A stretch of 64,000 nt of DNA from Lepidodermella squamata (Eukaryota > Animalia > Gastrotricha): contig JBLDXI010000042.1 in NCBI GenBank assembly GCA_047495785.1, positions 2,852,001-2,916,000 on the forward strand. Reading direction: 5' to 3'. Positions 945 to 43,228 of this stretch are shown here, piece after piece. Numbering within the stretch: the first letter of the stretch is position 1; the number at the start of each line of letters is the position of its first letter. The translations under genes and the position numbers were made by a program. The notes under the pieces were generated by a model, which saw nothing but the letters and a program-made list of their open reading frames with translations, ran no database searches and was not told the origin of the DNA.

Positions 945-1367
945 TTCATCTTCTCCTTTTATATCAAAAATCACAATATTTAATTGCTTAGATTTTTTGG
1001 CGATTATATATAAATTGTCTCCAATTTTTTTTGGCTTTTCTCAAGAGTTTCATCTCTCCTCATAATTCTGAGAGAAATAAGATGCATGATGCTTTGAAAA
1101 TCTCAATTTTTTGTAAAGCTTTAAAATCCAATTTTTCTGAATATTTTTTTTTGCATATTAATTATCATAATTAACCTTTCTCGCTATTCTTTATTGATCC
1201 CAATTTTAGTCCTCAAAATATTATATTATTTGAAGATCTTCTGTATTTATACTTCCGCATAATACTTTGTTTTATTCAAAACTGCGTTGATTTCGCTGCG
1301 AACCGCGACAAGGATAAGAGAGATAAAAATAAAAAGGAGTTGCGTTAATATTTTTTACCAGCTGATT

Positions 1368-4198
1368 TTATGACGATGCGATTGTTGACGGAGTGATAGC
1401 TCTCTCAACGAGATTTCCTGACCCACTTTGATGAACCTGGAAGAGAAACGATTAAGTAAAAATTGAAGCTCAACAAACTGAAATTATACTTGTAATAGCT
1501 GTAAGGTGAGATTGATTAGGCTCATGGCGATTACTACACAGCTGATAGCTACGTGAACATTCGCGAAACTCGAATCGAGAGCAAGAGCCAGGACAACTGC
1601 CGCCCCGATAAGTATAAATTGAGCGTAAACGGCTGTCCTCAGCAGAGCAATCTCGGGAAACGAAGTTTTCGTTGCCTATTAAACAAAGAAAAAATAATAG
1701 TTCTAGAATTGCGAAGTTTCTGTGATAAGAACTCACTGATCTCAGAGCTATGGAAAGGAAGATCAGTCTACCTAGAAGTAGGCCAATCCAAGCGATTGAT
1801 GCTCCAAGGAGACCTAGCGAGACTTCGGATGATGGCATGTGACAAGCGAACCAAACTTGGCGAATGTTAGTGCTGACTTCAGTTGGGGACGGAAAAAGGT
1901 CCCCATAAACTCTCTCAACTTTCAAGCCATCAATGGATAGCCAGAGAACAAAGAGGATTACCAGAACCACAACCCATACTAAGCCAGCTGTTGCGTATTT
2001 CGAAAACACCTTGCGGGCGGATTTTATCAGCGAGCTCTGATAGCTTGCATTCCCGGCAACTGCTTGCGCCTGCTTGAATCTACGACCTACCTGAGGACTT
2101 GGATGTGATCGAAATAACGACAGGGGTGAAAATCCTCGAGGTACAGCAAATTTGTTGCCAGCTAAAGCAGCCACTGCAGCTGAAAATGTCTCAAGCTTAA
2201 CCCACACAGAAACGAACACCATCCCGCCACCGCTCAAGATCAACGCATAGATAATGGAGCAATTTACGTGTGCATTTCGCTCTATCCCGTACGGAAGACT
2301 GATGACACTTGAGACGAAAATGCAGTTTCCGATTGCGAATGAAACATCGATTGGCGCGAAGTAAAATCTGCTCTTCTTTTTTTGACAACTCTGAATTATC
2401 ATGCAAGGAATGCTGATCGCCATAATAATAGCGGAAATGACTGCAAAATAACGAAAAATAAGGAGTGATGCAAATTCGAAGAAATTCACCTGTGAGGGAT
2501 ATGTAAACTGAATCGTCGATGGCCGGAACGACGGACAAAACTGTTCGAATCGAGTCTCCCGGGGGTTTATTGTTTAACGTACCCCATTTGATCCCATTAG
2601 GACCCAGAACGAGTGGTTTGGATGTGCTACTAACGTTGAAGTAACCGATTGAGTTACGCAACAAGCTCCCGTTGCTGTTTTTGAGTAATTGGTTGAAGAC
2701 AATTGGGGCGAATCCTTTCGTGTTATCCTCAGTTTCAGCCTCGTATTCGAAATCGCATCGCTGGCCGCTTAAACGGAAGTTATACAGACTTTTCACCATG
2801 GTCTCGAAGAACCATTTTCCGTTGTTTTGAAAGTTAGGGGCGCTAGTTACCCAATTCGACAAAGTATCGTTACCTGTTGGGATTAAATTATTCTCAGAAT
2901 CAAGTTCAATTATCTATGTCTTACGAGTATTTAGGAACGTTTCCGTTGAGTTTAACCAAGCAGCCATTAGCAGTGTCAAATCGTAAAGCATAATTGGCCA
3001 TAAGGGCCATAGTGAATTCGAACTAAGATTATCTGATATTTGCGACTGAATTCCGGTCAGGACTTGATTAGCAGAAAACCCGCTGATGTCGACTGCAGAC
3101 GGTCCTAATACCTCGGCTTTCGTGTTAGGATTACCAAACGTGAAAAACCCATCCATCACGTCTACGAGCATAGCTTCCGTGCACCATTTGTACCTGGTTG
3201 GATCGCTTGGACTGAACACTGTTAAAGACATATAGAAAATCGCAATGCCTTTTCCGTAAAGGTTGTATCTGTGGAGGAAGCATGCTAATCTTGCACCGAA
3301 GTTGCTGTTGATGTAGATTATCCGTGGGTTGTTACTTGCCAGCTCCTCCACAGCCATTCGCATGTCATTTTCATCGGGAGCGCCAAATGCGGGTACCTTA
3401 TGCAATTGCAAAGTCATATTTCGCTTTTCCAGGTCTCTCTGCATGGCGATTTCCATTGCGTTGTAGCTAGGGCCGATGTCTGACAAGACGTGAAGCCTTC
3501 GCCAGCCCATGGCTTGCATGAAGTAAACTAGGGAGAGTTGCACGTTGGTTATCAGAGGTCCACTGACGTAGTATCCAGCAAATTTGCGGCGATCAAGGAT
3601 GATTTCAGGGGTTGAGGATGTTCCGGTCATCGCCACGAAGTTGTAGTGGTGAGTGAAGTGACCTCTGCAGGAAATCAAGGTAAAATAACCATGAAATCAG
3701 AACTACGACTTACGTCCAAGTCTGGGCTCCGCAAAGAGTTGCGATCATCATTGGAACACGATTATATGCAACATCAGCCGAGTTGAATCTTCTGACTGTC
3801 GCAGGGATTGTATCAGCTCGTGCGCACTGCAATCATTTTGAAAGTATAGAACAATAATGAATAAGGTTAACTTTTCTTACAGTGTCGTCAAAAGGTTCTA
3901 CCACTAGATCGTAATCTTGAAGAAGCCCTGGAACGGTTTCGATTCTATCCAGAGCGAGTTGAATAGCTTTCGATGCCATTGCGCGCATAGGAAAAACTGC
4001 GCCGGCGTAATTTATCGACGCAAGGATTGTTATCAACTTTTTTCCTGGTCTAGGAGTACCAGTGAAGTTGAGGCCTCCCAAAGCTGTCGAGGCGATATAT
4101 CTCGGAATCGGGCTGTTCAACGGAATGCTCATCTGCTGCCCAGTTGAACACATAAGACTACCGAGTAAGATGCTGAGAGCAACAATTAACTGGGGCAT
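1368..4198 (-). CDS. Class C (GABA-B-like) GPCR, copy 1: signal peptide, ANF/periplasmic-binding-type ectodomain, 7TM; multi-exon
   Basis: ORFs 3833-4198, 2914-3678, 2197-2862 and 1470-2489 are separated by ~50-bp introns. Motifs AIQLALDRI..LLQDYDL..DD, MGWRR, WGTLNNKPPGD, then hydrophobic helices and LWLSIDGL..FAC. Stop TAA at 1368-1370, homologous to copy 2. Confidence 0.75.
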
Positions 4199-4955
4199 GT
4201 TTTAACTGAATAAAATTTAATACTGAGGTCGAGTTCCTTTTGGTTGAGAATGGCTTTTGAAGCGCATCTAGGCTGGTAGCGTGGTGTTGATTAAGGAAGT
4301 TGCGAACGCGTGGGAAAATCGGGGAAATTCCACAGCACCAGCAGGAGGGCGTCGAAAGAATCGGATGCACTTTGCTTCGTTAATTCCTAATGGTGTTTTC
4401 ACACGTTCTACGCTTGGACACCTGATTCATTTAAAAGGTAAAGGAACCGGAAGCGAATAGGGTTTTTGCAATACGATATTCATTTTTTTGCACCTAAAAC
4501 TAGTAGAAACTTTTAAACGTCTCTACAAACTCGGTGCACTAAGCAGCAATTATCGTAGCAGGGTAACGTACTACGTACTGCCCTGAAATGAAGCATTTTT
4601 TCAAACGCATAGGCAGATATTTATCAGAGGCCCGTTCATTTATTCAATAATCAATCGCAATTCTTTTGAAAATTCGGTTCAGTTTGATAATTTTTCAGAT
4701 GTTAGAGACTGATTGAGAGACATAAGGCACGGAAGCGGTGGCAGATTGTTGATGTTTGTCATAAAACTCAGGTTACGACGATTCAGGTCACGGTAATGTT
4801 GTGTACCCAATTTCGCTAAATGCAGGTGCGATTTCAACCATTTCCAAATTGCGGCATTTCTTCAATTTTAAAAATAAGTTGTTGAAGGTTGGGTGAAGAG
4901 TATTCACAAGCTTGTTAAAAGCACCGTTCCAAGCTTCTGTGTCAGTAGTAGGGGG

Positions 4956-6910
4956 GGGTCATTCCAGGTCAAATCGACCGACGACCCAACCCATGTTCTC
5001 AGATCATCCCCGAACTAATTTTATCGGATAGAGCTCAAAAAATTAGGAAACTTTTACTCTTGTGACTTTTTTCAATGACGCAAGGGCGGGCTTCTAAAAT
5101 TAAAAAACGAAAACCGACTCTAAATCATAGCAACGGTTGCCAGGTTGCTAGATCTCACCAGGTATGAACGCTCAAGGCGAGCTCTTTTTATCAGACCATC
5201 ACGTCGACGTACTCGAGCGATTAGAGCGGCGTCTTGCTTTACCTTGACTTACTGTTTTCCAGCATGGTTAAAAGAACTTAAAAAATTAGCCAAAAATCGC
5301 TATTTTCGAATCAATTTTTCACCCTTTCGAACGCGGTTTTATACCTCAAATTTGATACCATCGGATTCAGCGCAAAAAGTTGTATAACATATGTCAAAAT
5401 CACGAGGGTAATTTTCTTCTATACCGAGAATTAATTTTACGAAGATTGCCAAAAAGCATAGCCAGTAAGCACACCATGTTTACAATTATAATTAGGTTTT
5501 GCAAATGGAATTTTCTGAATGCGTGATTGCTAATGATTTAACAGTCATTATCCATGTAATTTATATTAAACTTGACGGGTAGCAAAGCAAATCTTACAAC
5601 TGGGCTTACGGGAAGCTGGTAGAGGTTTACTGTCACCTGTGTCACTGAAGAACTTATGAACAACGAATGCCTATTTGCCTTATCCGCAGTGGGACAGCAG
5701 TGGAAGCTGGAGGATATTCCATTTAGGTCTAGGAACTTCATCTATATAAGTCTAGGAACTTCATAGGTATATAATTCCTCCGCTGTACTAAATGTCACAT
5801 GTTATAATTTCTTTCAATACTCTTCAAAGCCTCACCTTAGACTTGCCTTACAACCAAAAAATCGAATTTCGGAACAATATGGAGCTGGTAGCTTAAGTTT
5901 AACGTATATACTTATTTACCGAATACAGTCTTATTTAAATATGAATTCGGATTTATTTGGCTTTCAACAATGGCGCAGAGTGGGACTTGCCGCAAGCAAC
6001 CGCAAAAGCCAGTGTGAGGGCGTATAACCGTAGAGAGGCTGTGATGGAAACGGCATGAAAAGGCTAAGCACTAAACTCTATCACTTAATGAATCGAACAA
6101 TGATGACCTGCCATTCGTAGCCTTGGGAAATAACTCAAGTGAACAAGGGATTACAGTACAAGATTTGCTAATTGGTGATCAAATGATATCATCAAGGGCA
6201 TAACTAGCCTTACGTCAATTGTGGGGCTTGGTGTGGCATATCATGAGCTAGTATCCGTTGTATTTTGATGTCGGTCTATTCCATAAGCTTGTATGGATAT
6301 ACGGCATTCGATCACGAGTTCGGGTGAAACAACTATAAAAATGAACAGATCATCCCTCAATCATCCACGTGCTTGAAGAGAGCGCGTGTTCTATCTATAA
6401 TATTATATGCTTTTTGGCAATCTTCGTAAAATTAATTCTCGGTATAGAAGAAAATTACCCTCGTGATTTTGACATATGTTATACAACTTTTTGCGCTGAA
6501 TCCGATGGTATCAAATTTGAGGTATAAAACCGCGTTCGAAAGGGTGAAAAATTTATTCGAAAATAGCGATTTTTGGCTAATTTTTTAAGTTCTTTTAACC
6601 ATGCTGGAAAACAGTAAGTCAAGGTAAAGCAAGACGCCGCTCTAATCGCTCGAGTACGTCGACGTGATGGTCTGATAAAAAGAGCTCGCCTTGAGCGTTC
6701 ATACCTGGTGAGATCTAGCAACCTGGCAACCGTTGCTATGATTTAGAGTCGGTTTTCGTTTTTTAATTTTAGAAGCCCGCCCTTGCGTCATTGAAAAAAG
6801 TCACAAGAGTAAAAGTTTCCTAATTTTTTGAGCTCTATCCGATAAAATTAGTTCGGGGATGATCTGAGAACATGGGTTGGGTCGTCGGTCGATTTGACCT
6901 GGAATGACCC
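4956..6910. mobile_element. Non-autonomous DNA transposon / foldback element with 505-bp TIRs (4956-5460 and 6406-6910) and a ~945-bp core
   Basis: GGGTCATTCCAGGTCAAATCGACCG... at 4956 is the reverse complement of ...CGGTCGATTTGACCTGGAATGACCC ending at 6910. The arms are nearly identical (one mismatch seen near 5312/6554), which explains the identical ORFs 5145-5387(+) and 6479-6721(-). TSD not clear. Confidence 0.9.
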
Positions 6911-6948
6911 GAGGGGAGGAAAAGTTAACGGTTTTTCCGATTTGAATA

Positions 6949-7497
6949 TTTCCCGCGCGACCTTGACCTTGAGCTAACCCTAACCCTAACCCTAACCCTA
7001 ACAGGATTCCTTAACCCTAACCCTAGGCCTAGGGCTTAACCCTAACCCTAACCCTAGGGCTTAACCCTAATCCTTAACCCTAACCCTAATCGATAATCCC
7101 TAGCCGATAACCGATTTCGATCAACCGATATTGATTGATTTTGAATTAATTTCCCGCCAAAATAGGCGTAACCCTAACCCTAATCCTTAACACTATTCTT
7201 AGGGCTTAACCCTAATCCTTAACACTATTCCTAGGGCTTAACCATAATCATTAACACTAACCCTAATCGATAATCCCTAACCCTAGTCGATATCGATTGA
7301 TTTTTCCAACGGAAAAATAATTTGAAATTTTCCCGCCAAAAACTATTTTACCGCCAAATATTCCCGCCAAAACCCTAGTCAAAATTTGAATTTTCCAAAA
7401 TTCCAACGGTCACTCGCTAGTTTTTGAAAAGGAAAATTGAAACTTTCCCGCCAACCATTATTTCAGCGCCAAAATACCAAAATATGACCTTGACTCT
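6949..7497. promoter_or_regulatory. Cluster of E2F-like TTTCCCGCC(AAA) motifs plus TGACCTTGAC nuclear-receptor-like half-site repeats
   Basis: TTTCCCGC(C/G) at 6949, 7150, 7329 and 7444; TTCCCGCCAAAA at 7361; near-matches at 7348 and 7461; GACCTTGACCTT at 6959 and TGACCTTGAC at ~7485. Function is inferred from consensus only. Confidence 0.45.
6974..7286. repeat. Degenerate telomeric-type (CCCTAA)n arrays in two blocks (~6974-7100, ~7169-7286)
   Basis: Runs of ctaaccctaaccctaacc with variants cctagggcttaacc and cctaatccttaac. Confidence 0.9.
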
Positions 7498-7979
7498 TCC
7501 GGCATAAATTCAAACTTCTAAAATGTAATGGGCATGTGACGCAAAAGTAACCAATGCATGAGTCATCTTGCAAGAGTGAAAGTACCCTCTGGAATTGTCA
7601 CGTTTTACGAGACCAAGCCAAGCTTTTATGTCTCGCCAACGGTCAGCTGCGAATATTCTTAAAATGTCAGCTTGACATAACGGCAACTTGCTATGATAAT
7701 AAATGCGGAGTCAACCTTTTCGTCATATGTGTAGATTCCGCTCTGGTAATGAAAGACATTTCAGCATACAAAAGTTAGTAAAACTCGACTGCATTTTTCT
7801 ATTTGTATCCTTGGATTGAGAAAAGCCATGGAGTGCAATCTTTACATTTACTTCGATTAGATTTCGATAGCGATTTCGAAATACAAAGGTTAATATAATG
7901 TTTAATAATATTGTAATAATGTTGATTATTTTTTTTATATACAGGTCACCAGTTGGCATTTTCCTCCTCCACAGGAGGA

Positions 7980-8416
7980 CTAGGGGGGCTGTGGAGGAGG
8001 ATGAGGTACGAGTAATCCGTGAATGTCCCATAATATCTGGATGATAGTGTTGTAGCTGGCTACTGAGTTCTGCAAGTGATCATACATTTGACCTGCCTCG
8101 TCGTAGCTGAAGAAAGAAAAATATAAGGTATGTTGAATTTTTTGACATTAAATACGTACAGGTTTACAAATAGTTGAAAGAAAATTTCAGCTATTTGAGG
8201 ATTAGCCATTTCAGGATAAGTAGATAAGTAAAGTTGCCAAGTAAAATGATGCGTAAGAATATGACAAGGTATTGTACAGTTGATATAAATTTTGTAAGAT
8301 TTCGCCAAAAAATGTTTTTGAAAACTGAGCGTTGCATCTCGGCACCATTTATACAATGTATATGCAGAGAAGTCGTTAACAGGTAGAATGTAATAAAAAG
8401 CAAGTAAATTCGTCAT
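7980..8416 (-). CDS. Small hypothetical protein of the Maverick-like element (2 exons), possibly frameshifted at its 3' end
   Basis: ORF 8060-8416 splices through a GT-AG intron at 8107-8159 to YDEAGQMYDHLQNSVASYNTIIQILWDIHGLLVPHPPPQPP*. Confidence 0.4.
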
Positions 8417-8451
8417 GTTACCTCATTTTCTCATTTTTCTTGGAATATTAA

Positions 8452-9000
8452 ATGCTTGAAATTGATGTTACTGTGCAAAATGTTGTTTCCACACTCTCGC
8501 TGGGGGTACATTTTGATCTGCGGAAAATTATTCACCTCTTCAAAATGGTTGAGCTTAAACAAAAGTTTCCAAATGCTCTCGTCATTAAAGAGCCGCACTT
8601 CAACGCTTTGCTATTTAAAAACGGGAAAGTAGTGCTTTTTACGAAGAATCCTGAACTGGCAAAAATTTATGGGCGAAAACTGGCAAGGAAACTACAGCGA
8701 CAAGACAACACTGCCATAAAGGTATCTAAGATTCGCCTGGTAAACAGTACTCTTGCGGGAAAGATGCCAACTGGAATAAACATAACTGAGGCCTTAATAG
8801 CTCGTGTTGCCAAACTCTGTGCGCGAGCGATATATGATGATACTAGATTTCCGGCACTGCGGTGTAAAAATGTGACCAATGGTTCAACATGCGTGAATGT
8901 ATTTTCGTCGGGGTGGATAATAGTGACTGGCATTAAAGATTTAACTACACCTCTGACGCAGCTTGAAACTATATTATATGCGATACTATATGAGAAATAA
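8452..9000 (+). CDS. Divergent TATA-binding protein (TBP)-like protein, core domain only, intronless
   Basis: Two TBP repeats: VQNVVST..FDLRKI..FP..LLFKNGKVV and IRLVN..YDDTRFPAL..VFSSGWIIVTG; 182 aa. Confidence 0.85.
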   Translation: MLEIDVTVQNVVSTLSLGVHFDLRKIIHLFKMVELKQKFPNALVIKEPHFNALLFKNGKVVLFTKNPELAKIYGRKLARKLQRQDNTAIKVSKIRLVNSTLAGKMPTGINITEALIARVAKLCARAIYDDTRFPALRCKNVTNGSTCVNVFSSGWIIVTGIKDLTTPLTQLETILYAILYEK

Positions 9001-9942
9001 AAATTGGACGCGACACACACTCGACTGAATGTTAATAGCCTACGTCCATGCTACTATGTAGTAGTAGCATGCCATTGAAACTGCGTACATTTATTCTTAA
9101 ATTTAGCGTCTATGATCTTAGGCTGTTCCGATGCTATGGAAAGAAGAACTGCTGTAATAAAAATTAAGATTTCGCAATGAAACTCTGGGGAATCAATTCT
9201 AATCTGGAGCAGTTATCCACAATTCAAGTTCATCGTTGTACTGTTTCGCCAATGCCTTTAATGTTGACGGAATCATCACATTCCGTCGCAGTTTGCTCGA
9301 ACGAAGTTATTCATAGAAATTAGAAATAGACCGTTTTACACACACTGGAAATCGATGGGATCCTCAGGTATGATTTGTCATGACTACATTTAATTCAAAA
9401 TAGCTAAATTTCCATTTCATTCATTCAGATCATATATGGAACAGGATCCGGATAAGTGTAAGTTCTTAAAGACATAAATCAATCAAAATTCATTGTATTT
9501 TTTTTTTCTTAGACGCTGCCCGATGACATGTGTCAATATGGTGCGCCGTTAAGTAATAAAAGTTTTCAAGCAAGCCGATTGTACGCGATTTAATGTGCGG
9601 ATATTGTAATAAAAATTGAGAAACACTTGAAATCGGGTCGCTTTTTATTACAACGCGTGCTGATCAACAATAAAAATTCAGAAACAGTTGCTAAATAAGC
9701 AATAAAAATATGAATTTGGAGACATCATTCGGAAACGAGTAAACCGTTGAAAAGTCATTTAAATAAGCTAACGTTCTCGAGGAATGAAACTTGACAGTTT
9801 TCAAATGAGCATTATATCCCTATGAGTTTTTAGCCGAACCCAATTTATTATCATTATTCGTGAAAATCGGACAACTATTTTCCATCTTCATTAGTGAAAA
9901 ATGGATTTTCACGGGTTTTTCTGCTATTCTCCGCGATTCAAG

Positions 9943-12390
9943 ATGGACGTTGTCAAATATTCCTCGCAAGCGATCGATCCTTCAGATCAGATAGGGTTTG
10001 GATTTGAAGACGACGCCGATGAGGATGATGAAAGCGGCTTGGAAATACTGAAACTTTTATCGAAAATTAATTCGCAATTCGAAGGATTGGTAGAGAAATT
10101 GCGAAACTCTTTCCATCCATGGTAGGAACTCGTTATTTAAGAGTAAAAATGAAACTTTTTAACTGAAAATTAGGGATTACGTTCGGGTTGAACTTTTCCA
10201 CCCCAGCTTGAATTTTCCAGTAAATACGAAATACCTTCAAGTACAGGAATTGACTGGTGCTATGATCATGGACGAGATAAACTCGGTGATGCAGTCTAGA
10301 CTTTCAATAGCCATGAACAACGGTTCGATTTAATATTACTGGAACTTGGAATGATTTTCATTATTAAAATTAGGCTGGAGCTACAACATCTATAGAATTG
10401 CAGTGGGTGAACTGGAAGATGGCGAGCAAGGCTACGGTGGCAAGGGTGGTAAACGACGCCGACTTGAGGAAACAATGGTTGACTTCATAATGGGTCACAA
10501 TGAAGTCCTTCCAGTGGAAAATGATGCTGATAATCACTGTCTCTTCAGGTCAATCGCACATTCTCTGTTATATCGTGATCACAAACAACCCCGGCCGGGC
10601 TGCCAACCTCACGGTGACTATGACAGACTACGGCCAGGATTTTCGAAAGACCGCATGTCAACATCCGAACTAGCGAATCTGGAAAGGGCTGCAATCAAAG
10701 CATATCAGGGCGAACTAGCACTGAAACTCATGAATGCCGCGGGAATCCAACCTAATCAAATGGCATATGGTCTTGACGAATTCAAGCGGGTTATTGATAC
10801 GATTGGCTTACCCTATCGAGGCAATAATTATTTTAAACAAACTAAAATTCGATAAAAACTTTTGGAAATTAACAGGTGTTATTTACAACTTCATGGATAA
10901 GCAAACGATGGCTGTACATCCGGAAGCAGGACTCACAATTGCCGATGAGCGAAAAATTTTGATCGGTTATATCAACAACAGAGCCTTGGCATCACATCGC
11001 GAAAGTGGGCGGTACGATCGAAGCGTGGGACATTATGTTGGATTTACAAGTAGGAGAAATTTATAAAATGCATAATTTGAAATTCATTCCTAAAAAATGA
11101 AACAGGCATTAGCACAATTTCTGGGGAGAAGATGATGTGCCCGCGATGTTTCATGTTGCACAAGAAAAACAACCTGCAGCACACGTGCCGTTTTAAGTGC
11201 AACAGGTGCCAGCGAGCCGGCGCAACATGTCGTGACTCGAACGAACGAACAATGTTATGCGGGAGTTGTGGCTTATTTTTCCACGGGGCCCTGTGTTTCA
11301 TGAATCACCAGACACCTGAAACACCCGGAGCTGCGACCATTTGCCAGTCCTACTTCATGTGCGGCAAGTGCGGTAGGAAAATTGGGATAGCGCAAAAGGG
11401 AAAACATAACTGTGAGTTGATGAAATGTGAAAAAATCCACCTTAATTTTTGCTACAATGTGACTATAGGTCAATCTCGGACGTGTCGAACTTGTAACGGG
11501 CCAATAAGCTCGGAGGAGGGTGACGAGGAACACAGCTGTGTCATTCAACCAGGCAGGCTTCGCAAAGATCCTCTGCGAATTGCCGGAGCTTGGGATACCG
11601 AAACAATTCAGTTGGAAACCGGAGAACTAGTGCCAGTCGTGATAGTGTTGAACATGTTTTGTGACTCGTGTCAACACATGCTTGTCACCGCAACGTGTCC
11701 CAAATCGTGTACTGGTGACGACCCGCGCCAGCAGATCTTCGTTTTAACTGGTGCGGATTCCACCTGTGTAAACCAGTTTATGAAATTTTTGCTGCGAGAA
11801 AAGTATTCTGGAATTTTACTTCTCTCTCATAATGGTTCAAGGTGGGAAAATCGAAGAGTTAGATTTCGAAAATTTAATTTAATCTCGCTATAGATTCGAT
11901 AATTTTATGGTCCTGAAATGGTTACAACAGCACGATTATCAGTTCGATCATATTTACAAAAATAACACAATTATCGAGCTATCTGTTGAGAAAAAAGCAA
12001 TCGTATTTCGAGACTTTTACCTCCTCTCCATGTCATCGTTGGCTTCGCTTTTCCACTGCTTCGGTCTGGATGAGGATGCGAATGCAACTGGAAAGGAATT
12101 TTTTCCCTATAAATTGCTGACATCAGCGAATTTCCTTTCCGATAACGAGCGAGACTTCCCAACCTTGGATGACTATGACACAAACCGGCTTTCGGATTCA
12201 AAACTCGCTGAGTTGCAACAATTCTTAGCTGAAAATCAGCATCAAAAGTTCCACCTTCGTAATCAGCTGATTAATTACTGCCAGTCCGATGTAAATTTGC
12301 TGCATAGAGCTTTAATCAAGTTCCGATCGATGTTGCGAGAATTCACAACCCGAGACGACAAGTGTCCGGAAGGCATCGACGCTATATGGG
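9943..12390 (+). pseudogene. Polinton/Maverick protein-primed DNA polymerase B (N-terminal region, Zn fingers, 3'-5' exonuclease), intron-containing, truncated before the polymerase domain
   Basis: The spliced product has DYVRVELFHPSL..LT..IMDEINSVMQS, NDADNHCLFRSIA, GHY..TS, a Cys-rich region, ExoI WDTET, ExoII HNGSRFD, FRDFY..SL..L, GKEFFPY and ExoIII YCQSDV. Introns at 10122-10173, 10323-10373, 10821-10875 (GC-AG), 11050-11105, 11412-11468 and 11842-11893; a further donor at 12391 has no recognisable continuation. Confidence 0.85.
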
Positions 12391-12727
12391 GTATGATTAT
12401 AAAAGAGTCGCTAATCTACTTTTTACGGTCGATCTTTGGCAAGCCATTTGAACAGCACAGAAACTTTTGAAGACGACTAACCAACCTGAAGAGTAGCCAA
12501 TTTTTTTTCATTGGAGTCACATCTGGCTGGTTCCGGCCTTCTGGGACCGGCTCCAACTGGGAGAAGACTAAACACCTATCCACTGGCGAATTCGATTGAT
12601 AACTTTGATCGAAACCAGAACGAACCCAGATCAAACCAAACAATGAGTTAACAAAGATTGCTCGAAAAATCGCCTGAAATCAGCTAGGCCGATAGGGCGA
12701 TTTCGACCACTTTGACCACTAGGGATT

Positions 12728-15548
12728 CTAGGACGATGCGATTCTTGAGGGGGTGATAACTCTCTGTACGCTATTTCTTGCTAGAGTTTGATAAACCTGA
12801 GAAATACCAAAGTAAATTGAAGTTAAAAGAGTCACAGTTAAAATTACTTGTAACAGCTGAATACTGATATTTATGAGACTCATGGCGATTACTACACAGC
12901 TGATGGCCACGTGCACATTCGTGAAACTGGAATCGAGAGCAAAAGCAAGTACCACCGCCGCCCCGATAAGTATAAATTGAGAGTAAACGGTGGTTCGCAG
13001 CAAAGCAATCTCGGCAAACGAATCTTTCGATGCCTGTAATAGGAGGAAAACTTACTTATCGCGAAATTTCTATGGTAAAATAACTCACTGATTTCAGAGC
13101 GATGGAGAGGAAAGCCAATCTCCCTAAAAGTAGACCAATCCAAGCGATTGATGCTCCAAGGAGACCTAGCGAGACTTCGGATGATGGCGTGTGACAAGCG
13201 AACCAAACTTGGCGAATGTTAGTGCTGACTTCAGTTGGGGACGGAAAAAGGTCCCCGTAAATTCTCTCAACTTTCAAGCCATCGATGGATAGCCAGAGAA
13301 CAAAGAGGATTACCAGAACCACAACCCATGCTAAGCCAGCAGTTGCGTATTTCCAAGACACCTTACGAGCGGTCTTGATTAAGGAGTTCTGATAGCTTGC
13401 ATGAGACTGGTTAGATTTCGGCCCAGGAAGAAGACGGCTGGGATTTGATCGAAATGATGCCAATGGTGATATCCCTTGACGTATAGAGAATTTGTTTTCC
13501 GCCAAAGCCACGACTGCAGCTGAAAATGTTTCGAGTTTTGCCCAGACAGAAGCGAATGCGATCCCACCACCGCTCAAGATAAAAACATACGATAGGGAAC
13601 AATTTACGTGGACATTTGTCTCAATTCCGAATGGCAGAGAAATGACACTCGAGACGAAAATGCAGTTTCCGATTGCGAATGCAACATCGATTGGCGCGAA
13701 GTAAAACTTTCCCTTGTTCTTTTGACAACTCTGAATTATCATGCAAGGAATGCTGATCGCCAAAATTATTGACGAAATGACTGAACAAGATCAAAAAATT
13801 CTAACGATTTTTGCGAATTTAAAACGCTCTCACCTGTGAGGCCTATATACACTGAATCATCAATTGCTGGAACGACGGACAAAACTGTTCGAATCGAGTC
13901 TCCCGGGGGTTTATTGTTTAACGTACCCCATTTGATCCCATTAGGACCCAGAACGAGTGGTTTGGATGTGCTGCTAACGTTGAAGTAACCAATCGAGCTA
14001 CGCGACAAGCTCCCGTTGCCGGCCTTGAGAACTTGAGTGAAGACAATCGGCGCAAAACCTTTCGAGTTATCTTCAGTTTCAGCCTCGTATTCAAAATTGG
14101 CTCGTTGACCGCTTAAACGGAAGTCATACAGACTTTTCACCATGGTATGGAAGAACCATTTTCCGTTGTTTTGAAAGTTAGGGCCGCTAGTTACCCAATT
14201 TAACAAAGTATCGTTACCTGTAGAGATAAAACAATTCTCGGAGTTAAGCTCCATTAACCGACTTACGAGTCTTTAGAAATTTTTCGGTCGAGTTCAACCA
14301 AGCAGCTATTAGCAGTGTCAAATCGTAAAGCATGAATGGCCATAAGGGCCAAAGTGAGTTTGTGCTAAGATTGTCCGAAATTTGCGACTGAATTCCGGTC
14401 ATAACTTGATTAGCAGAAAAGCCGCTGATATCGACCGAAGACGGTCCCAATACCTCGGCTTTCGTATTGGGACTACCAAACGTGAATAGTCCATCCATCA
14501 CATCAACAAGCATAGCTTCCGTGCACCATTTGTACTTGCTTGGGTCGCTTGGACTGAATACGGTTGTAGATATAAAAAATAATGCGAATCCTCTCCCATA
14601 AAGGTTGTATCTGTGGAGGAAGCATGCTACTCTCGCACCGAAGTTACTGTTGATGTAAATTATGCGTGGATTGTTGCTTGCCAAATCTTCCACAGCCATT
14701 CGCATGTCATTTTCATCGGGAGCGCCAAAAGCAGGTATTTTGTGCAACCCTAATGTCATGTTTCGTTTTTCTAGCTCTCTCTGTAGGGCAATTTCCATGA
14801 CGTTGTAGCTTGGGCCGATGTCGGACAGTACATAAAGCCGACGCCAGCCCATGGCTTGCATGAAGTAAACGAGGGAAAGTTGGACATTGGTTATCAGAGG
14901 TCCACTGACGTAATAGCCGGCGTATTTACGGCGATCAAGGATAATGTCGGGCGTTGAAGATGTCCCAGTCATTGCCACGAAGTTGTAGTGGTGAGTGAAG
15001 TGACCTCTGTGAGATAATTAATAAAATAAAATCTGAAAAGAGTCATACAGCTTACGTCCAAGTTTGAGCCCCACAGAGAGTTGCGATCATCATTGGAACA
15101 CGATTACATCCAGCATCAGCCGAGTTCAGTCGTTTGACTGTCGCAGCAATTGTATCAACTCTTCCGCACTGCAATCATTTTGAATATATTTCTGAATTAG
15201 GTAAACCTCTCTTACCGTGTCGTCGAAGGGTTCTACCACTAGATCGTAATCTTGGAGAAGCCCTGGAACGGTTTCGATTCTATCCAGAGCAAGTTGAATA
15301 GCTTTGGATGCCATTGCGCGCATAGGAAAAACTGCGCCGGCGTAATTTATCGACGCAAGAATTGTTAACAGTTTTTTTCCTGGTCTGGATGAACCGCTAA
15401 AGTTTAGTCCTCCTAGGGCGGTCGACGCGATATATCTCGGGATTGGGCTGTTTAGCGGAATGCTCATCTGCTGCCAAGTTGATCGCACTAAACTACCGAG
15501 TAAGACGACGCTAACAGCAACGACGGAAGATCTAATGGATTTGTTCAT
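12728..15548 (-). CDS. Class C (GABA-B-like) GPCR, copy 2; multi-exon paralogue of 1368-4198
   Basis: ORFs 15126-15560, 14244-14978, 13766-14254 and 13056-13763 are nearly collinear with copy 1 and share intron positions. ATG at 15548 (MNKSIRSSVVAVSVVLL), stop at 12728. Confidence 0.75.
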
Positions 15549-16183: not shown

Positions 16184-17563
16184 TTAATTATCGTCGCCGT
16201 CTGTGAAGCATGGTGGGACGGGGCTTGAGTTGATAGCCTTGCCTTGAAAGTAAGAGCATAGATACTGACCTCCTTTGACTGGCCAACCCCCTCCGCCATG
16301 TACATTCACGCTGTCAAACAAAATACCAGTTGCTGGATTCGAAACATTTGCAACCATAATGCCCGGCGAAAGAACTCCGTCGTAGATATTCACGCGCTGC
16401 AGCGTGATATTCCTCAGCGAAATGTTCGGGTTAGTTTGGCATTTCGTATTAAAAGCTGGGTACAAAAACGAGCAGCCGGTACCGGTGCCATGGGGCTGGT
16501 GTTGCTGCTGAGTGCCTATAAAAATTGCCCACCAAAGCGGACGGTGAATGTTGATATCACGATAAGCGATGTTAGCAATAAGACCAGTGCCGTGGTCTCC
16601 CGGGTTTGGTTTGATATAAATAGCTTTCAGGGGCGTCGTGAAGTTGACATCAACAACTTCGACACCATCGATGCAGTTCACGTTTGGATTTGGAGGGACT
16701 GAGCCGATACTCATGCCCACGCCTAACACGACGTTAGAATGGGTGATTGTGATGTTTCTAGTGCAATTCGACCCGAATTGACTTCTATCACCCGCATTCA
16801 TCGGCTTGACAGCAACAGCGTCGTCAAAGTTTTCAATCGTCACATTTGTGATGAGTACGTCTTTCCCAGAGACGTCGATGCCATCCGTATTGAGCGGAAA
16901 AGTCGGAATAGTGATTCCTAGATGATTTTCAACAAGCTTCCCAGCGCTCTTCAGGATTTTCTTCTGACCATCGACATCAACATAGATCGTCAAATTCCAG
17001 ATGCGCGCACCAAAAACATCTGTTATGTCTATGTGGTATTGAGGGGCGTTTTCAACTCTGAATCCAGTTAGGGTTACATTAGAGGACGAATCGATTACTA
17101 AAAGGTTAGGCCGATGGTCTTGACCTTTAACTATCACGAAATTCCACCATTCGTAGCCATTTCCCAATATTGAACCGGATCCTTGAATAGCCAGGTTTGT
17201 TGCATTGGTGAAGCGAATCATGTTGTAGACGTTATCAGGGTACCCGGGCCAGTTTTGGGCAAAGTTATCGGTGTATGCAGAAAGGTTGCCATCAAGTTGG
17301 ATTACTAAGTTTGATACTCTATCAATTTTCAGCTCAGCTGGTAGGAAAGCGTAGGTCTTGCCACCAGGAATCAATACTTGGCGATTCATGGGGTCTGAAG
17401 ACGCATTGGCTGCGGCGACTGCGCTGGCAAAGGCAGCCCCGTTGGCAAGAGCTTGGGTTTTGGAAAATACTCCGGCAACGGCTCCGAAACTTTCGATATT
17501 AGTTTGCTGCAGCGAGAATCTGCAGAGGCTGATAACCATCAGAATAGTAGCCGTGAGCTTCAT
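16184..17563 (-). CDS. Secreted glycoside hydrolase family 28 (polygalacturonase-like), intronless
   Basis: Signal peptide; FGAVAG, GNGYEWW, RP, NTDGIDV, NFDDAVAVK, GMSIGS and YIK motifs; beta-helix composition. Confidence 0.9.
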   Translation of the reverse strand: MKLTATILMVISLCRFSLQQTNIESFGAVAGVFSKTQALANGAAFASAVAAANASSDPMNRQVLIPGGKTYAFLPAELKIDRVSNLVIQLDGNLSAYTDNFAQNWPGYPDNVYNMIRFTNATNLAIQGSGSILGNGYEWWNFVIVKGQDHRPNLLVIDSSSNVTLTGFRVENAPQYHIDITDVFGARIWNLTIYVDVDGQKKILKSAGKLVENHLGITIPTFPLNTDGIDVSGKDVLITNVTIENFDDAVAVKPMNAGDRSQFGSNCTRNITITHSNVVLGVGMSIGSVPPNPNVNCIDGVEVVDVNFTTPLKAIYIKPNPGDHGTGLIANIAYRDINIHRPLWWAIFIGTQQQHQPHGTGTGCSFLYPAFNTKCQTNPNISLRNITLQRVNIYDGVLSPGIMVANVSNPATGILFDSVNVHGGGGWPVKGGQYLCSYFQGKAINSSPVPPCFTDGDDN

Positions 17564-18388
17564 TTTGCTGCCTGCTTCAGTTGCAATTTAGTTTGAATGA
17601 CTGACAAAATAATGCCAACCAGACAATCTGAAACTTGCCGGTGGTGAGGCCTATTTTCTAGACCATTTTTTATCTGCATGAGATAAGCAAAACGAATAGC
17701 ATGACCGATGACAAGTAGAATAAGGTTGTGGTGCACTTTATTTATAGCTCAGCAGTTTTACAGCAAAATGAGCTATTTCCAACTTGAATTTACCCTCGAG
17801 CGTGGTGAATTTACCCTCCATAGCTGCAATTTTATTTTATTTAATTCAGATATTTTTATATTTTCAAACTTGAATCCGAGATCCGAAGGCATTTTGTGCG
17901 ATCTGCAATCTTATGCGTTTTTTCCATCAATTCATCACTTCCGGCAGTTCGGACATTTTTGTGCGGTGCAATTTCACACGCGCTAGGTTGATCCGACGTT
18001 TTCTGAAAGCAACTTTGAAGTAATTATCTTAAAAACATGTTTTCAGTTTTCAAAGATGACAAGATTTACGCTTTTAATAATCACTAACAAGATTTGAACT
18101 AGAGGGGTACGAACGAGCAGTGTCATCGTTTTCAGTTCGGTGTACCGCGCATCCAATTTCATAGAAGGAATTATACTTGCCCAGAGTCTATTCGTTAAGG
18201 AATGTCGGGGCAAATCGTCAATCAGCTCGATTGAAGTGACTAAATGTCCAGTAGCACGCGTTTCCAACAAATGCGTAAAACCATTCATAAAAAGATATTT
18301 TTTGCAAACATTTTATGGATCGCACGATCAAGTAGCAAGGCGGAGTCATGGATACGAGCCAACTGACCAATCAGCGTGCGGATTTTTT

Positions 18389-21736: not shown

Positions 21737-23373
21737 ATGCTGTCGAAGTTATTTTCAGCAGTTTTTGACGTTCCTGCCCAGTTGGTTATTTTTTGCCTAG
21801 ACGGAAAAAGTGATTCTGCCCGATGTTTCTGCCCGCTGTTTCTGCCCGCTCAAACGATTAGGGTGGATTTTTTATTTTCGAAAATCAATTAATGCTCTCG
21901 AAAATTCGGGAAAACCTCTCACCTGAAATAATGTTGCACAACTTCAATTTCCGTTCCCAGTCCCTTTACTACAACCTTCAGACTCTGACCAAACGAGTGA
22001 ACAAGTGAATAACCTTTATTAGAATGTTTAAACTTTAAAACAAGTGTTTGGGCCGGATTAATTGTTAATAACGACGGAGCAATTCGAGAAATTGAAGATC
22101 GGTGTTTCACTTCCACGGAGCCGTCAGCGAGAGCACCGAGGCCCAGGTCGCCAATATCAAAAGTGATCTCCATTGAAAATTCGACGGAAATTCGCAATAT
22201 TCAATTGATAATAAAACAAGGAAATGAACAACGAACAAAAAAAATTCAAAAAAAAAATTTGCTACAAATTTTAAGCTGGATTTCTTATTTTCGTTATTAA
22301 CAACGGTCATCTTTCATACGCACTATACACCATTCCCCATTTTCACTCGTCCGAGTGTCGGATTAACGAAAATAACCAACTGGGAAGGAACAGGAACTCT
22401 TCCCTTGTGTCTCGGGCAAAACCTCGAATTCAGCCCTTGAAAATACCCTCGGGCTTCGCTCCGCTGCGCTCCGCTACGCCCTCGGGCATTTTCAGCGGGC
22501 AGAATTCTCGGTTCTGCCCTCAACACCGGGAAGAATTCCTTAATTCTTTTGGTTACATCGACTACGCGTAACAATTTTCTTGCTCTCACTCTCGATTTTC
22601 AAACATTTTCAGTTTAGAAGCTCCTGAACGTGACCTTGCGAAACACTTGATAAGCGCGGCGGCTGAGCAAGGAATTATCGGACGACCTGTATCGAATCCG
22701 TAACTCGATCTATTCTCTATAAAACTGTATTGAAGTAACTCTCAGAATTTCGCTCTTAGTGCTGAGGCTGTCAACGTTTCTGTTGAATTGGATTTGAAGA
22801 GAATTATCGGGCTTGATTCGCAAAACTATGTAATGCTTGCGACCACCGTGAGAATGTCATGGAAGGATCCGGTTTTGTCATGGACTCAATCTCGTTACGG
22901 TGGAGTCTACTCGATAGCTCTTCCTGCCGATAAAATCTGGAGGCCCGACATTGTCTTTACCAACGAGTATGAAACTTCGCCATCTATTTCAGCTAAGTAA
23001 ATGCTCTTTTTTACTCAGCAACAATGGCGGAGCTGGAGATCAGAGTTTTAACATGATGGAAACTAATGCTCTTGTTTATTCTAATGGAAAAGTTGATTGG
23101 ATGCCTCGAATGCAGCAAAAGGCAGCTTGCAAGAATATCGATGGAACTTACAAGTGTAAATTGGAAGCCACTTCTTGGCTCCACGATAACGATAAGATTT
23201 ATGTCGAATTCCCTGAAGGAGAATCGGGTGGATTAGATATTTCCAGTTTTGAGGAAACGCCCGGACTGGAACTTGTCAGTACCAAAGCGTCGTTCGAAGA
23301 TAAACAATATCCATGCTGCGAAAACAAGTTCCGTACTTTGAAATTTGAAATCGATATAAAGCGTAAAGATTAA
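21737..23373 (+). pseudogene. Soluble acetylcholine-binding-protein (AChBP)-like gene, copy 1; exon 1 interrupted by a ~770-bp insertion
   Basis: SWKDPVLSW, KIWRPDIV, SWLHD, YPCC and a stop right after the ligand-binding domain. Exon 1 matches copy 2 up to 21773 and resumes at ~22544. Confidence 0.7.
21774..22543. mobile_element. Non-autonomous insertion with a palindromic subterminal motif, ending TTAA
   Basis: Absent from paralogous copy 2. The 3' end has ccctcgggcttcgctccgctgcgctccgctacgccctcggg...ccttaa, reminiscent of Crypton-type non-autonomous ends; family uncertain. Confidence 0.65.
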
Positions 23374-24266
23374 AGTAACTCAGTTACTACTATGAACCTT
23401 GCTATTATTCCTAATTCCTAATATCATTCAAAATTAACTTCGAGGCTCCCATAAGACTGATGCCCTTATACTCTTCCGAAATTCAATAAAATTTCTCCTC
23501 TGATCAGATTGTTGTTGCCACAAATGGGGAAGGAATAAAAGGATCCGGGCCCCCTAAGTCATCCTGTAGTACGCCTCAAGCTCAAATCTTTTACCACATA
23601 CTTCGGTATGAGTCATCAAGACGATGAATCAGCATAGAACGTGGCTATGAGTCATCGTTAAATATCAATCGTGCTGAGATGAAAGGACTATTCTCAAATT
23701 ATTGGCTTATGCTACGAGTATAAGTAAGCTGATTCAGCTGACGCTTTCGGCGGCTGGTTTCGACCTGCTGCTCGCTCAAAAATAAAATATATCCAAAATA
23801 CAATCCATCATAGAGCTATCAGCCGCACTTCATTTCATTCTGGCCATCAGGAATAATGGCAAAAATGCTGCGCCTTTGACGTTTTCCGTGATTTTCAAGA
23901 CAGCGTTTTTGCTCGAGGGGTGACTTGCCGGCCATGAAGCAGCATACATATGTCGTGTAATTAATTAATTGCGGCTCATCGCCAATTGCCCGAAAAACTA
24001 CCGCAGGAATAAGCAAGAAGCAATAAGCAAGTTATTTCCAGTTCTGAATCTCTGCTCGCAGAATTGGGACTGTTATTAAATGCTTAGTACATCACGTACC
24101 GTCATTTGGGGCTATTTGGTATGCGTCAACAAATGACCCCTGGGTTTTTCGCTTTTTTACACGTTTCCAAGGGTCCTGATTCGAATGGCACCCGTATTCC
24201 GAATAGCCCCACGGATGAACTATTATTGACACATATATAGACATCTTATTATTAGAAAATAAGCAA

Positions 24267-24345
24267 GGACGTGTGGCCGAGTGGTTTTTTTCATAGTTGT
24301 CTATGGCGAGATCATTAAAAGGTCAGCGGTTCGATTCCACAAAGG
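24267..24345 (+). other. tRNA-derived (SINE-like or pseudo-tRNA) sequence
   Basis: Pol III A box TGGCCGAGTGG (24274) and B box GGTTCGATTCC (24328); no intact cloverleaf. Confidence 0.5.
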
Positions 24346-24752
24346 TTCATTTTTTAGTTTTTTCGCCTAAATTATTTTTTCTACAGCAAAATAACAGCCG
24401 TTTTTATGGAAACAAACTTATGCCATGCAAATAGTTGGCTTTTAATTAGATAGTTTTTCCTTAATTCGCAGTAAATCAATTAATTTTTAATATTCATTGC
24501 AATCGGGAGCAACTGAGGGACATGTCTTTTCAAGAGAATTAACTAAAAACGCGTTTGAACCTATCCAAATTCCTACCAAAAATCCCGCTTCATAATATTA
24601 TGGAAATCAACTCCAAAAATACACACAGAGCTCTCTGATATGAACTCGATGCCCTCAATTACTCCCGCGTATGATAATTGACACTGAAACTAGGAATTTT
24701 TTATTATTTGACGGGGAATTAAACAGTCGGTCTCAAATTTTAGTGAAATAAA

Positions 24753-25615
24753 ATGTTATCGAGGTTGTTTTCAGCTGTTTTTGATGTTCTTTTGGTTACA
24801 TCGACTACGCGTAACAATTTTGTTGCTCTCACTCTGGATTTTCACAACTTTTTCTGTTAAGAAGCTCCTGAACGTGACCTTGCGAAACACTTGACAAGCG
24901 CGGCGGCTGAGCAAGGAATTATCGGACGACCTGTCTCGAATCCGTAACTTGATCTATTCTCTTCGAAACTATATCGAAGTTACTCTCAGACTTTCCCTCT
25001 TAGAGCTGATCCTGTCAAAGTCTATGTTGGGTTGGATCTGAAGAAAATTATCGGACTTGATTCGCATAACTATGCGACGCTTGCGACGAACGTGAGGATG
25101 TCATGGAAAGATCCAGTTCTGTCATGGACTCCATCTCGCTACGGTGGAGTCGACTCGATAGCCCTTCCTGCCGATAAAATCTGGAGGCCCGACATTGTTT
25201 TTTCCAACGAGTATGAATTCGTAATCTATATCAGCTAAGTATGAGTTCTTAATTACTCAGCTACAATGGCGGAGCTGGAGACCAGAATTTCAACATGATG
25301 GGAACTAATGTTGTTGTGAATTCTGATGGAACAGTTCTTTGGATTCCTCGCATGCAGCAGAAGGCAGCTTGCAAGTATGACGATGGAGCTTACAAGTGTA
25401 AATTGGAGGCCAATTCATGGCATCACGACAACAATAAGATTTACGTCGAACTCCCTGAAGGATCGGGCGGCGGATTAGGTGTTGCCAGTTTTGAGGAAAC
25501 GCCCGGACACGAACTTGTCAGCACCAAGGCGTCGTTCGAAGATGAGGAATATCCATGCTGCCTCGAAAAGTACCGCACTTTGAAATTCGAAATCGTTATA
25601 AAGCGTAAAGATTGA
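24753..25615 (+). CDS. Soluble AChBP-like protein (Cys-loop receptor ligand-binding domain only), copy 2, 4 exons
   Basis: Signal-like MLSRLFSAVFDVLLVTSTT, then ERDLAKHL..RPVSN, SWKDPVLSW, WRPDIV, DGTVLWIP, SWHHD, YPCCLEKY and KRKD*; no transmembrane segments. Confidence 0.85.
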
Positions 25616-26574
25616 AGTAACTCACTTGCTACTATGAAGCCTGCTATTCCTAATTCCTGATATAATCCTAATTTAACTTCGAGGCACCCTTAAAACTGAT
25701 GCCCTTACACTCTTCGGAAATTCAATGAACTTTCTCATCGCATCAGATCGTTATTGCCACAAATGGGGAAGGAATAAAAGCACTTAACCTATGGTTTTTA
25801 TTGAGATCAATTATTAGTATCGTTAAGAAAAAATTCAGGAAACAGCTAGCTCATCCAGCTCCACAGATTTCACAAGAGAACCTTGAGCCGCTATGCGATT
25901 AACTAGATTCCATTCCAGCTGATAAGGTGAAAATTGGCACTGAGCTTTTAGCGTTTTCCGCGATTTTCAAGGATTTTTGCATGAGAGCGGTGACTTGCCG
26001 GCCAGAATTGGGACTGTTATAATAACTATTTAAGCGGACTAATGTAATGCGGTGATATCGTGTGTTCGAGAAATATATATCAGCAATTGAGATTTGCTCT
26101 AAATATTTAGCTTTTGTTTGCATGTACTTTCCGCAATATCCCTTGCATTTTCAAACATCGAATTTGCGATATTATGGCCCGCGTAATGAGCATCGGCATC
26201 TGGCTAACGAACATTTAAAGTTTCAATTACACAAGCTGATCACCAACGTTAATCTCAGTGAATAACACACCCATAGTATTAAAATTCGGTGTAATTTGGC
26301 GAAAGAGTGAACCCCTGCGAAAGAGTGAATGTGCATATTTATCACAATATAGCTAGTAGTACACTGTACCTAGCCCACAAAAAATGATGCTCAAAACAAC
26401 TATATTCACCGGCATGCTATGTGTAAATACTAGCATAGATAAGCTATAGTATATAGCTCGCGTGTGCAAGTCCGACTTTCTGAGGCACTAGAACCATTTC
26501 TTTACTACAACACTAACGTAACAAAATAACATTTCGGTTTTACTACATAGGATACAACATTTTTACAAGCAAAA

Positions 26575-41723: not shown

Positions 41724-42440
41724 GGCTCTCGAAAATTACATGCTATGTTTTAAAGAATTGAACACACTTTTGTTTTTTTCAACATTTCATGCATTAAATT
41801 CAGCAGCCTGCTTAAAAATTAATGAAGGCTTAAGTGGCGTGAATTGATTTTTAGCTACGCCATCACTCGTTCGAGTCGTGTATAATAACATAAACATGTC
41901 GATTAGAGTTCGAATTCGCATGGCTGACAATGCCTCGAAACTATTATTTTTCGCCTTCACTTTTTAAGTAGGCAATAAAGCGCCCAAGTCGCATGCCTAC
42001 GCGATCACTGATGAGTTCACGGCAAGGGCATCGTAAACACGCAGAACAAAGAACCGTGTAACTGCGCACACACACCGCATGCGATTCATACATATATGCA
42101 TCATGCTTGCAACACACTCAGAAGTGACAGACCCGGTGAAAAGAGGCAGCCGTAACCTTTATACTGTTGTGGGTAACGAATCGAACAGCAGTGACCATGT
42201 ATACTTAAACGTGAGCAAACGCATCAACATTGTACAAGCTGACGCATAAACAATGCTATAAGGCTAACATGGAGATAAAATGACCGTAACAATTATGTTG
42301 TTTCACTGCTGAGAAAGATAGCCTTTACTCTTCAAATAAAACTGCTTCATCTTCCTGCATTGTTGAAAACTTGATATCAGTCTGAGTTTATATGTAAGCC
42401 TGGGAGTTACTCGCAAAATACCAGAATTAATTACATCCCA

Positions 42441-42960: not shown

Positions 42961-43228
42961 TACCAGTGTATTCAGCGCTGCGTCGGCGAATACTCATCGA
43001 TTCTCGGCGATGCTGTTGACACTGTGATGCTTATGCTTCCCTCTTGTGTCAAAATAAACAGTAGATAGACTTGGATAGTTATGTCTCAAATTACAGCGTG
43101 ATGCTTGAGATTTATAAATATTTGATTACCATTTCAGTCCTTTATTTATGAATAAAGTGGCATGTTTTTAGTGAAAAAAAAATACCTACTTTATTTTCGT
43201 CTTTCAGAGAATCCTGATTTAAACTGAC

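Follow-up and report, generated by a model that had tools for sequence, protein, structure and literature searches.

A truncated Polinton-type element of the gastrotrich Lepidodermella squamata with a TBP-like gene inside an intron that is both spliced and retained

It is an open question what keeps integrated Polintons silent and what could turn them to particle production; according to PMC8097293, their virions have not been observed. The locus described here, which bears on this question, lies in the genome of Lepidodermella squamata (Gastrotricha; assembly GCA_047495785.1), within a 64-kb stretch of contig JBLDXI010000042.1 (positions 2,852,001 to 2,916,000) that is called the window in its entirety. 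Positions 4944-12404 of the window comprise, as mostly confirmed below, 5.5 kb from the left of a Polinton/Maverick, together with a nested transposon of 1,955 bp that is a distinct element. It is held with high confidence that this anatomy is real and that the parts belong to one Polinton-type element. With moderate confidence, the arm is read as a truncated mobile Polinton having a TBP-like gene in an intron that is both spliced and kept, in which host splicing likely gates a TBP predicted to read an altered TATA box on late genes. An earlier note, made from the sequence alone, had proposed the left arm of an element encoding its own TBP, and this is borne out by a cassette-free allele and by copies elsewhere. 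The parts that it had listed were also recovered, namely a Polinton terminus at 4944, a nested element with terminal inverted repeats (TIRs), telomeric blocks with E2F-like motifs, a TBP-like gene and a protein-primed family B DNA polymerase gene (pPolB) whose splicing is predicted, while the end of the element, which it had set at 12420, was moved to 12404 by contigs of two sequencing runs. The features are as follows, with the evidence for each in brackets.

4944-4955, plus strand: left terminus, an (AGT)2-type end followed by a G run (sequence; a joint in run X1; a second flank in run X3)
4956-6910, no strand assigned: non-autonomous DNA transposon in the G run of the terminus, with 505-bp TIRs (4956-5460 and 6406-6910) and a 945-bp non-coding core (inverted repeat)
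6911-7417, plus strand: rest of the probable left TIR, about 520 bp including the terminus (X1 loose end, depth step)
6942-7473, plus strand: cluster of E2F-consensus sites at 6950, 7151, 7330, 7361 and 7445 (plus) and 7466 (minus) (motif scan)
6974-7089 and 7169-7292, plus strand: two degenerate (CCCTAA)-type repeat blocks (tandem repeats)
7795-9632, plus strand: spliced polyadenylated RNA with little coding capacity (X2 joints, X4 joints, poly(A))
8452-9000, plus strand: intronless TBP-like gene of 182 aa, inside the intron 8128-9121 (Pfam, PDB sequence matches, model, Foldseek)
9943-12390, plus strand: 5'-part of pPolB, 708 aa from a start at 9943, or 722 from the ATG at 9901 (frame, PF03175)
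12403-12404: deletion breakpoint, with a 2-nt overlap of element and host (X1 and X3 contigs)

Is this an element that moves, or a collection of fragments? Copies were compared using contigs from four (X1-X4) of the five listed public runs. X1 behaves as DNA, since introns and intergenic stretches are present in it, and its contig depth is not a copy number; X2 is read as RNA from four splice joints and a poly(A) end alone, none of the runs being labelled RNA on record, and it is not mainly DNA, since its depth is zero at 9377, within the third intron of the leader RNA described below, and in the host intergenic DNA at 4234-4600. An X1 allele joins 4944 directly to 12403 and skips the entire cassette, which marks the insertion edge. 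The window carries AGTAGTAG at 4944, that is, an AG/(AGT)2 Polinton terminus; in X3 an AGTAG-type end and G run are joined straight to 6913 behind a different flank, a joint that confirms the terminus, reveals a second insertion site and makes 4956-6910 a later insertion. The terminus side, TBP and pPolB are covered by X1 contigs of 97-100% identity, whose differences from the window copy stand at full depth. Contigs of X1 and X3 leave the window behind 12404, so that other copies continue past that point; one X1 contig enters the window at 12403 out of 255 nt or more of different DNA, and a 14-mer from that DNA does not occur in the window. The cassette-free allele, the second flank and the continuing copies indicate a mobile element with more than one insertion site.

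The simplest history is an insertion after 4943, followed by a deletion that starts within pPolB intron seven and extends into flanking host DNA, so that the window copy has lost the remainder of its sequence, including the right TIR, and its target-site duplication (TSD). An inverted-repeat search of the window found no right TIR, that part of the copy being deleted; integrase is not among the Pfam matches in the window, the remainder of the element beyond 12404 being likewise lost here, and no capsid genes were seen in the surviving arm, as ATPase, protease and the major and minor capsid genes would lie beyond 12404. The insertion is interstitial, between ordinary host genes. Beside the breakpoint, contigs of three runs have numerous loose ends at 12659-12713 and X1 joins 12434 to 12658, which marks a short multi-copy repeat in a polymorphic position.

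The arm is expressed as a leader RNA with exons at about 7795-7888, 7945-8127, 9122-9367, 9429-9457 and 9513-9632, and introns at 7889-7944, 8128-9121, 9368-9428 and 9458-9512, which measure 56, 994, 61 and 55 nt, respectively. All four joints are found in X2 and the last two also in X4; an AATAAA lies at 9608 and an X2 poly(A) loose end at 9632, 19 nt beyond it, while the 5'-end at 7795 is merely the end of a contig. After removal of the four introns the RNA is about 672 nt long, its longest ATG-started frame has 48 codons, and it has no Pfam match and no Rfam match; it is better read as a non-coding or micro-ORF RNA. Thus, the small spliced open reading frame (ORF) of the earlier note stands as to its splicing, with joints in both X2 and X4, and is hardly an ORF. 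An extra upstream intron that would lengthen the leader ORF is unsupported, the X2 contig being unspliced from 7795. The second intron, far above the host norm in length, holds the entire TBP ORF. X2 contains it both removed, at a contig depth of 23, and unspliced, in pieces at 8156, 8187-8527, 8547-8827 and 8951-9149 at a depth of 15-27; the shared downstream exons have a depth of 51. The contigs therefore show two forms of the leader RNA with one poly(A) end. The use of host splicing, claimed earlier for this arm, is in this way observed for the leader RNA, while for pPolB it stays a prediction.

The TBP ORF, whose stop codon overlaps an AATAAA at 8996, matches PF00352 with an E value of 9.9e-19 and encodes a bare core devoid of an N-terminal extension. 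Its model (pLDDT 92.2), built on an alignment of 102 rows of cellular-type homologues in which 101 of the 150 listed matches were used, has the two-repeat fold, and Foldseek gave a TM of up to 0.86 to solved cellular TBPs, at 19-29% identity in the structural alignments, and of at most 0.81 to viral TBP-like proteins in BFVD. The two-repeat saddle, the four intercalating Phe and the two Asn place the protein within the TBP fold; residues kept in comparison with yeast TBP are N69, F99, F116, N159, F190, F207, T215 and G216, whereas T124 is replaced by Phe, G125 is missing, and I194, V203 and L205 are changed to Arg, Cys and Asn, respectively. These last three positions are those altering TATA specificity in TBPm3, according to the relevant section of PMC1636458. 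By this residue pattern the protein probably still bends DNA, with a specificity that has probably changed, and it is predicted to bind in the minor groove accordingly. Position E188, part of the TFIIB stirrup, is occupied by Thr, with Glu found there in 90 of the 101 aligned homologues. The low identity and the changes at T124/G125, L205 and E188 set the protein apart from canonical cellular TBPs, and at such identity it is not a host orthologue.

Searches for relatives of this protein point in the same direction. Among 1.84 billion representatives, 318 matches have an E value of 0.001 or better and three pass 1e-10, the best showing 27-38% identity; a word-seeded protein search returned no TBP relative, and a metagenome scan returned only an archaeal TBP locus, which is unrelated. 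In the atlas its neighbours are TBP clusters of giant viruses and archaea, the recognition score falling short of the tool's threshold. Three named proteins among the ten best matches are divergent TBPs, annotated in a mite, in a bdelloid rotifer and in a centipede and in two cases on short contigs (13 and 17 kb), and these may be Polinton TBPs misfiled as host genes; TBP cargo of this kind may more generally be mistaken for a host paralogue.

Downstream, the pPolB frame opens only across six introns, at 10122-10173, 10323-10373, 10821-10875 (GC-AG), 11050-11105, 11412-11468 and 11842-11893, with a seventh donor at 12391. The six are 51-57 nt long and 68-80% AT, and four of them came from a blind scan; the seven exons are stop-free in the carried phase, and each downstream exon has a single open phase, which is the carried one. 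This arrangement points to a spliced message. The short introns of the element, at 51-61 nt when the TBP intron is set aside, match the host introns in the window (about 49-61 nt). An introner origin was rejected, as no pair among the nine short introns is similar above shuffles. PF03175 matches the exonuclease region with an E value of 3.6e-13 and the last exon with 5.5e-13 (profile positions 20-166 of 468), which identifies a protein-primed family B polymerase whose palm domain was lost to the deletion; the atlas neighbours are animal DNA_pol_B_2 clusters. The protein begins with an acidic leader, followed by a probable vOTU, a Cys-rich zinc-finger region and the exonuclease, an order that fits the TP-vOTU-EXO-PALM plan in the cited part of bioRxiv 10.1101/2024.03.18.585575, with the vOTU present as motifs alone: DNHCLF and GHY were seen by eye, Pfam gives no match, and the single-exon fold has a pLDDT of 40.6. 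The exonuclease exon has no relative among longer proteins in a word-seeded search and nothing significant in a PDB sequence search, and viral-contig scans with two pPolB exons found none. The 17 differences listed for the pPolB region, 2,448 bases in total, are divided into 11 among the 2,125 exon bases and 6, one of them the sole indel, among the 323 intron bases.

This gene structure contradicts the usual description of Polintons by intronless core genes, a feature that is typical and not defining. Intact vertebrate Mavericks are described in the part of PMC8097293 used here as having intronless ORFs, (AGT)2 ends and 6-bp TSDs, and nematode Polintons as having intronless core genes and intron-containing cargo (bioRxiv 10.1101/2022.07.12.499685, in the section cited); in contrast, the present pPolB is predicted to be split by six or more short introns, with a donor for a seventh. 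Lineages with such split genes would escape ORF-based screens.

The probable left TIR carries motifs of its own. Its length of about 520 bp is suggested by the summed X1 contig depth, which is 509-872 up to 7420 and 256-278 directly after, and by a loose end behind 7417. Motifs were counted in 6911-7500 and compared with 500 shuffles. TAACCC occurs 17 times, against a shuffle mean of 1.29, and the E2F consensus TTSSCGC 6 times, against 0.19 expected, neither count being reached in any of the shuffles; the telomeric blocks of the earlier note are therefore confirmed together with their E2F-like motifs, as degenerate repeats. The longest perfect telomere-like run has four units (6975-6998), which speaks against a true telomere or a long interstitial telomeric array, and the C-rich strand reads inward from the left end, with the polarity of a left chromosome end. 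TTGAA stands 1-6 nt upstream of four E2F sites, a composite expected 0.0 times and reached in 0 of 500 shuffles, and none occurs in the host part of the window. These counts are not independent, since the sites recur in duplicated units, and part of the E2F excess is the duplication of one unit. In a canonical CDE-CHR promoter the CHR (TTTGAA) lies downstream of the E2F/CDE site; such a promoter was ruled out, as TTGAA is upstream of the TTTCCCGC site in all four composites. CHR alone and the Myb-type AACGG are weakly enriched, their counts being reached in 9 and 2 of the 500 shuffles, respectively. Single-strand folding of the TIR (z -2.8) was not used as evidence, because short palindromic repeats account for it. 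An E2F-pattern scan returned nine loci, none like the element beyond the motif.

Two further observations concern this region. Three ATCGAT palindromes (7089-7297) close the telomere-like blocks, and resemble DRE/BEAF-type motifs. In a small Rep-and-capsid (CRESS-like) viral contig, E2F-type sites in tandem, accompanied by TTTGAA, lie directly upstream of Rep at about 1400-1510. They closely resemble those of the present TIR, which suggests that small DNA viruses share an S-phase promoter design.

How might these parts work together? A single insertion with copies elsewhere, into whose terminus a second transposon later jumped, is directly seen. Through its E2F sites the TIR would place the first promoter under S-phase control, and its telomere-like repeats would attract telomere-binding proteins of the host to the termini of a linear form; being at an interstitial insertion, these repeats were no integration signal at this site. 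The RNA of the arm would then take one of two courses, a fully spliced form without any ORF above 48 codons or a form keeping the 994-nt intron, from which a TBP binding and bending the minor groove with changed specificity could be made. The pPolB message would need at least seven splicing events, and this would imply replication in the nucleus and dependence on the host spliceosome. Taken one step further, the arm could be a host-wired latency switch, where the E2F and telomere-protein sites of the TIR start an RNA that is spliced non-coding by default, a retained intron releases the altered TBP that switches on the late genes, and the intron-rich polymerase acts as a second splicing gate; this extension is tentative. 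The arm offers parts that can be tested, namely the cell-cycle sites of the TIR, an expressed non-coding RNA and a TBP gene that splicing removes or keeps.

A splicing-gated TBP is the most likely working reading, and several points weigh against it. Each run consists of contigs, which carry no strand, transcript start or expression level. The spliced X2 contig has small indels relative to the window, so that the spliced and retained forms may stem from different genomic copies and not from regulation; 13 ATGs precede the TBP start in the retained RNA, which may thus translate TBP poorly, and an internal TBP promoter is possible. The late genes and their promoters, where the altered TATA box is predicted to lie, are missing from the arm through the deletion. 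As to the polymerase, no pPolB splice joint is listed in RNA, X2 barely covering the gene, and for two of the six introns the boundaries were set by eye, guided by the reading frame. Between copies, the exons of pPolB show 8 non-synonymous and 3 synonymous differences, and TBP shows 2 and 1, respectively, with no purifying selection visible, and these ratios fit a dead copy. The repeats are telomere-like by sequence and may not be the host's own telomere repeat. Moreover, no single record joins TBP to pPolB in another copy, the longest listed piece being 1,130 nt, and their linkage elsewhere is deduced from a series of pieces with the identity given above.

The same observations feed the alternatives. 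In the same Polinton, TBP might be a nested gene that is transcribed independently, from a promoter to a poly(A) site within the intron; the spliced RNA would then be a leader or latency-type transcript apart from it, and the unspliced contigs would be pre-mRNA or read-through. A TATAAA at 8284, the AATAAA at the TBP stop codon and the upstream ATGs, which disfavour translation from a long RNA, would suit this arrangement, as would the slower removal of long introns; however, X2 extends over intron sequence ahead of the TATA-like box (site 8156, 58 nt from a contig end) and runs through 8951-9149 across both the AATAAA and the acceptor, and among the loose ends listed no poly(A) end lies near 9020. 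This alternative is unlikely, while being the strongest of the three. More doubtful still is that TBP is passive cargo of a decaying element, with the two RNA forms due to copy-specific splice mutations and the TIR motifs amplified by slippage and functionless: the truncation of the window copy, the absence of a synonymous excess between copies, the degenerate repeats and the recurrence of E2F sites in duplicated units all agree with decay, whereas the ORF is intact, with the four Phe and both Asn in place at about 25% identity to any cellular TBP, which requires long selection on the protein, and no stop or frameshift is among the differences listed in any run. A chance mosaic of a host TBP paralogue, an interstitial telomere and a pPolB fragment, the situation that the earlier note had itself named as fatal to its proposal, could draw on the lack of a single record spanning the cassette in another copy; it is very improbable, as one joint removes the whole cassette, the terminus recurs at another flank, TBP and pPolB are both in copies differing from the window, and the TBP has no close homologue and only 19-29% identity to cellular TBPs.

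With animal Polintons/Mavericks (adintoviruses), as portrayed in the cited parts of PMC8097293 and PMC8502044, the arm shares the (AGT)2-type end, a TIR of probably about 0.5 kb, a pPolB of the PF03175 family in which a probable vOTU precedes the exonuclease, and a polymorphic insertion; the ranges given for Polintons in the section used of bioRxiv 10.1101/2023.08.22.554363 are 13-25 kb for the element, 100-1500 bp for the TIR and 5-8 bp for the TSD. The portions consulted of these three descriptions contain neither a TBP nested in an intron nor telomere-like or E2F repeats in a TIR. The claim of an undescribed system was nevertheless too strong. In the legend to Fig. 5 of Starrett et al. 2021 (PMC8502044) a genome map of MELD viruses bears a "TBP" label, without a match in the supplement; what they share with the arm is a TBP-like gene in a Polinton-related element with an adintovirus-like PolB; in the text available of that paper, the bearing element is not specified and no residue, promoter or RNA analysis was found. 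In print, a TBP in such elements was found only as this figure label. Introns are also known from Polinton-like viruses, the dinoflagellate Maverick-Polinton-like viruses of PMC11957031 carrying introners, at least in the part cited; they share spliceosomal introns with the present arm, but theirs are repeated and transposon-derived, while those here are dissimilar and host-like. Telomere-type repeats occur at a viral origin or end in herpesviruses, namely the Epstein-Barr virus oriP nonamers bound by TRF2 and the terminal repeats of human herpesvirus 6 (PMC13223232 and PMC7197865, in the passages cited), whereas here they are degenerate, lie inside a Polinton TIR and belong to a non-telomeric insertion. 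The literature search, to which most subscription journals were external, returned no paper in which a Polinton TBP is assigned a function or lies in an intron, and none on Polinton TIRs with telomeric repeats or E2F sites; two preprints of 2026 likewise yielded no passage on a TBP.

Outside Polintons, the TBP-like factors of giant viruses and of beta- and gamma-herpesviruses also combine a virus-encoded TBP fold with an altered surface and probably a late-gene role, the herpesvirus factor acting at late promoters. Unlike these viral proteins, the present one is a bare 182-aa core and is structurally nearer to cellular TBPs, and neither a viral RNA polymerase nor a TBP partner was seen in the surviving arm. 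Adenovirus, whose E2 and E1A are controlled by E2F, resembles the arm in that E2F sites lie close to the left end and over the unit of a protein-primed polymerase, and in that the polymerase message is spliced, as is predicted here; it uses host TBP and is not known to encode one or to integrate.

The transposon nested in the terminus is a separate element. Its arms are fully complementary in the inverted-repeat search, with one mismatch in blastn, and no long ORF was found in its six frames. Its ends are GGG termini, and its long TIRs with GRG ends are reminiscent of Sola2. Three X1 contigs pass from the TIR end at 6910 into other flanks, and the X3 copy of the Polinton is without it. Two imperfect inverted-repeat pairs elsewhere in the window, at 43228-43881 and 21770-22511, resemble old miniature inverted-repeat transposable elements.

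The surroundings are those of an animal with compact genes, the Pfam content of the window comprising receptors, alpha-2-macroglobulin, Sushi, acyl-CoA dehydrogenases and EF-G. The element is flanked by two tandem receptor paralogues on the minus strand (1364-4170 and 12724-15505), which are 83% identical, and the acyl-CoA dehydrogenase of the window has 54-59% identity to all named animal matches, as would be expected of an invertebrate lineage that is probably under-sampled. Host tandem duplications of an acyl-CoA dehydrogenase, an FKBP and a ligand-gated channel gene are found at 48203-51870, 42375-45418 and 22602-25780, respectively, and the two acyl-CoA dehydrogenase copies differ in their introns. 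Amid the animal receptor paralogues, a single-exon glycoside hydrolase 28 gene (16184-17587, minus strand; Pfam E 7.8e-32) is a candidate for horizontal transfer.

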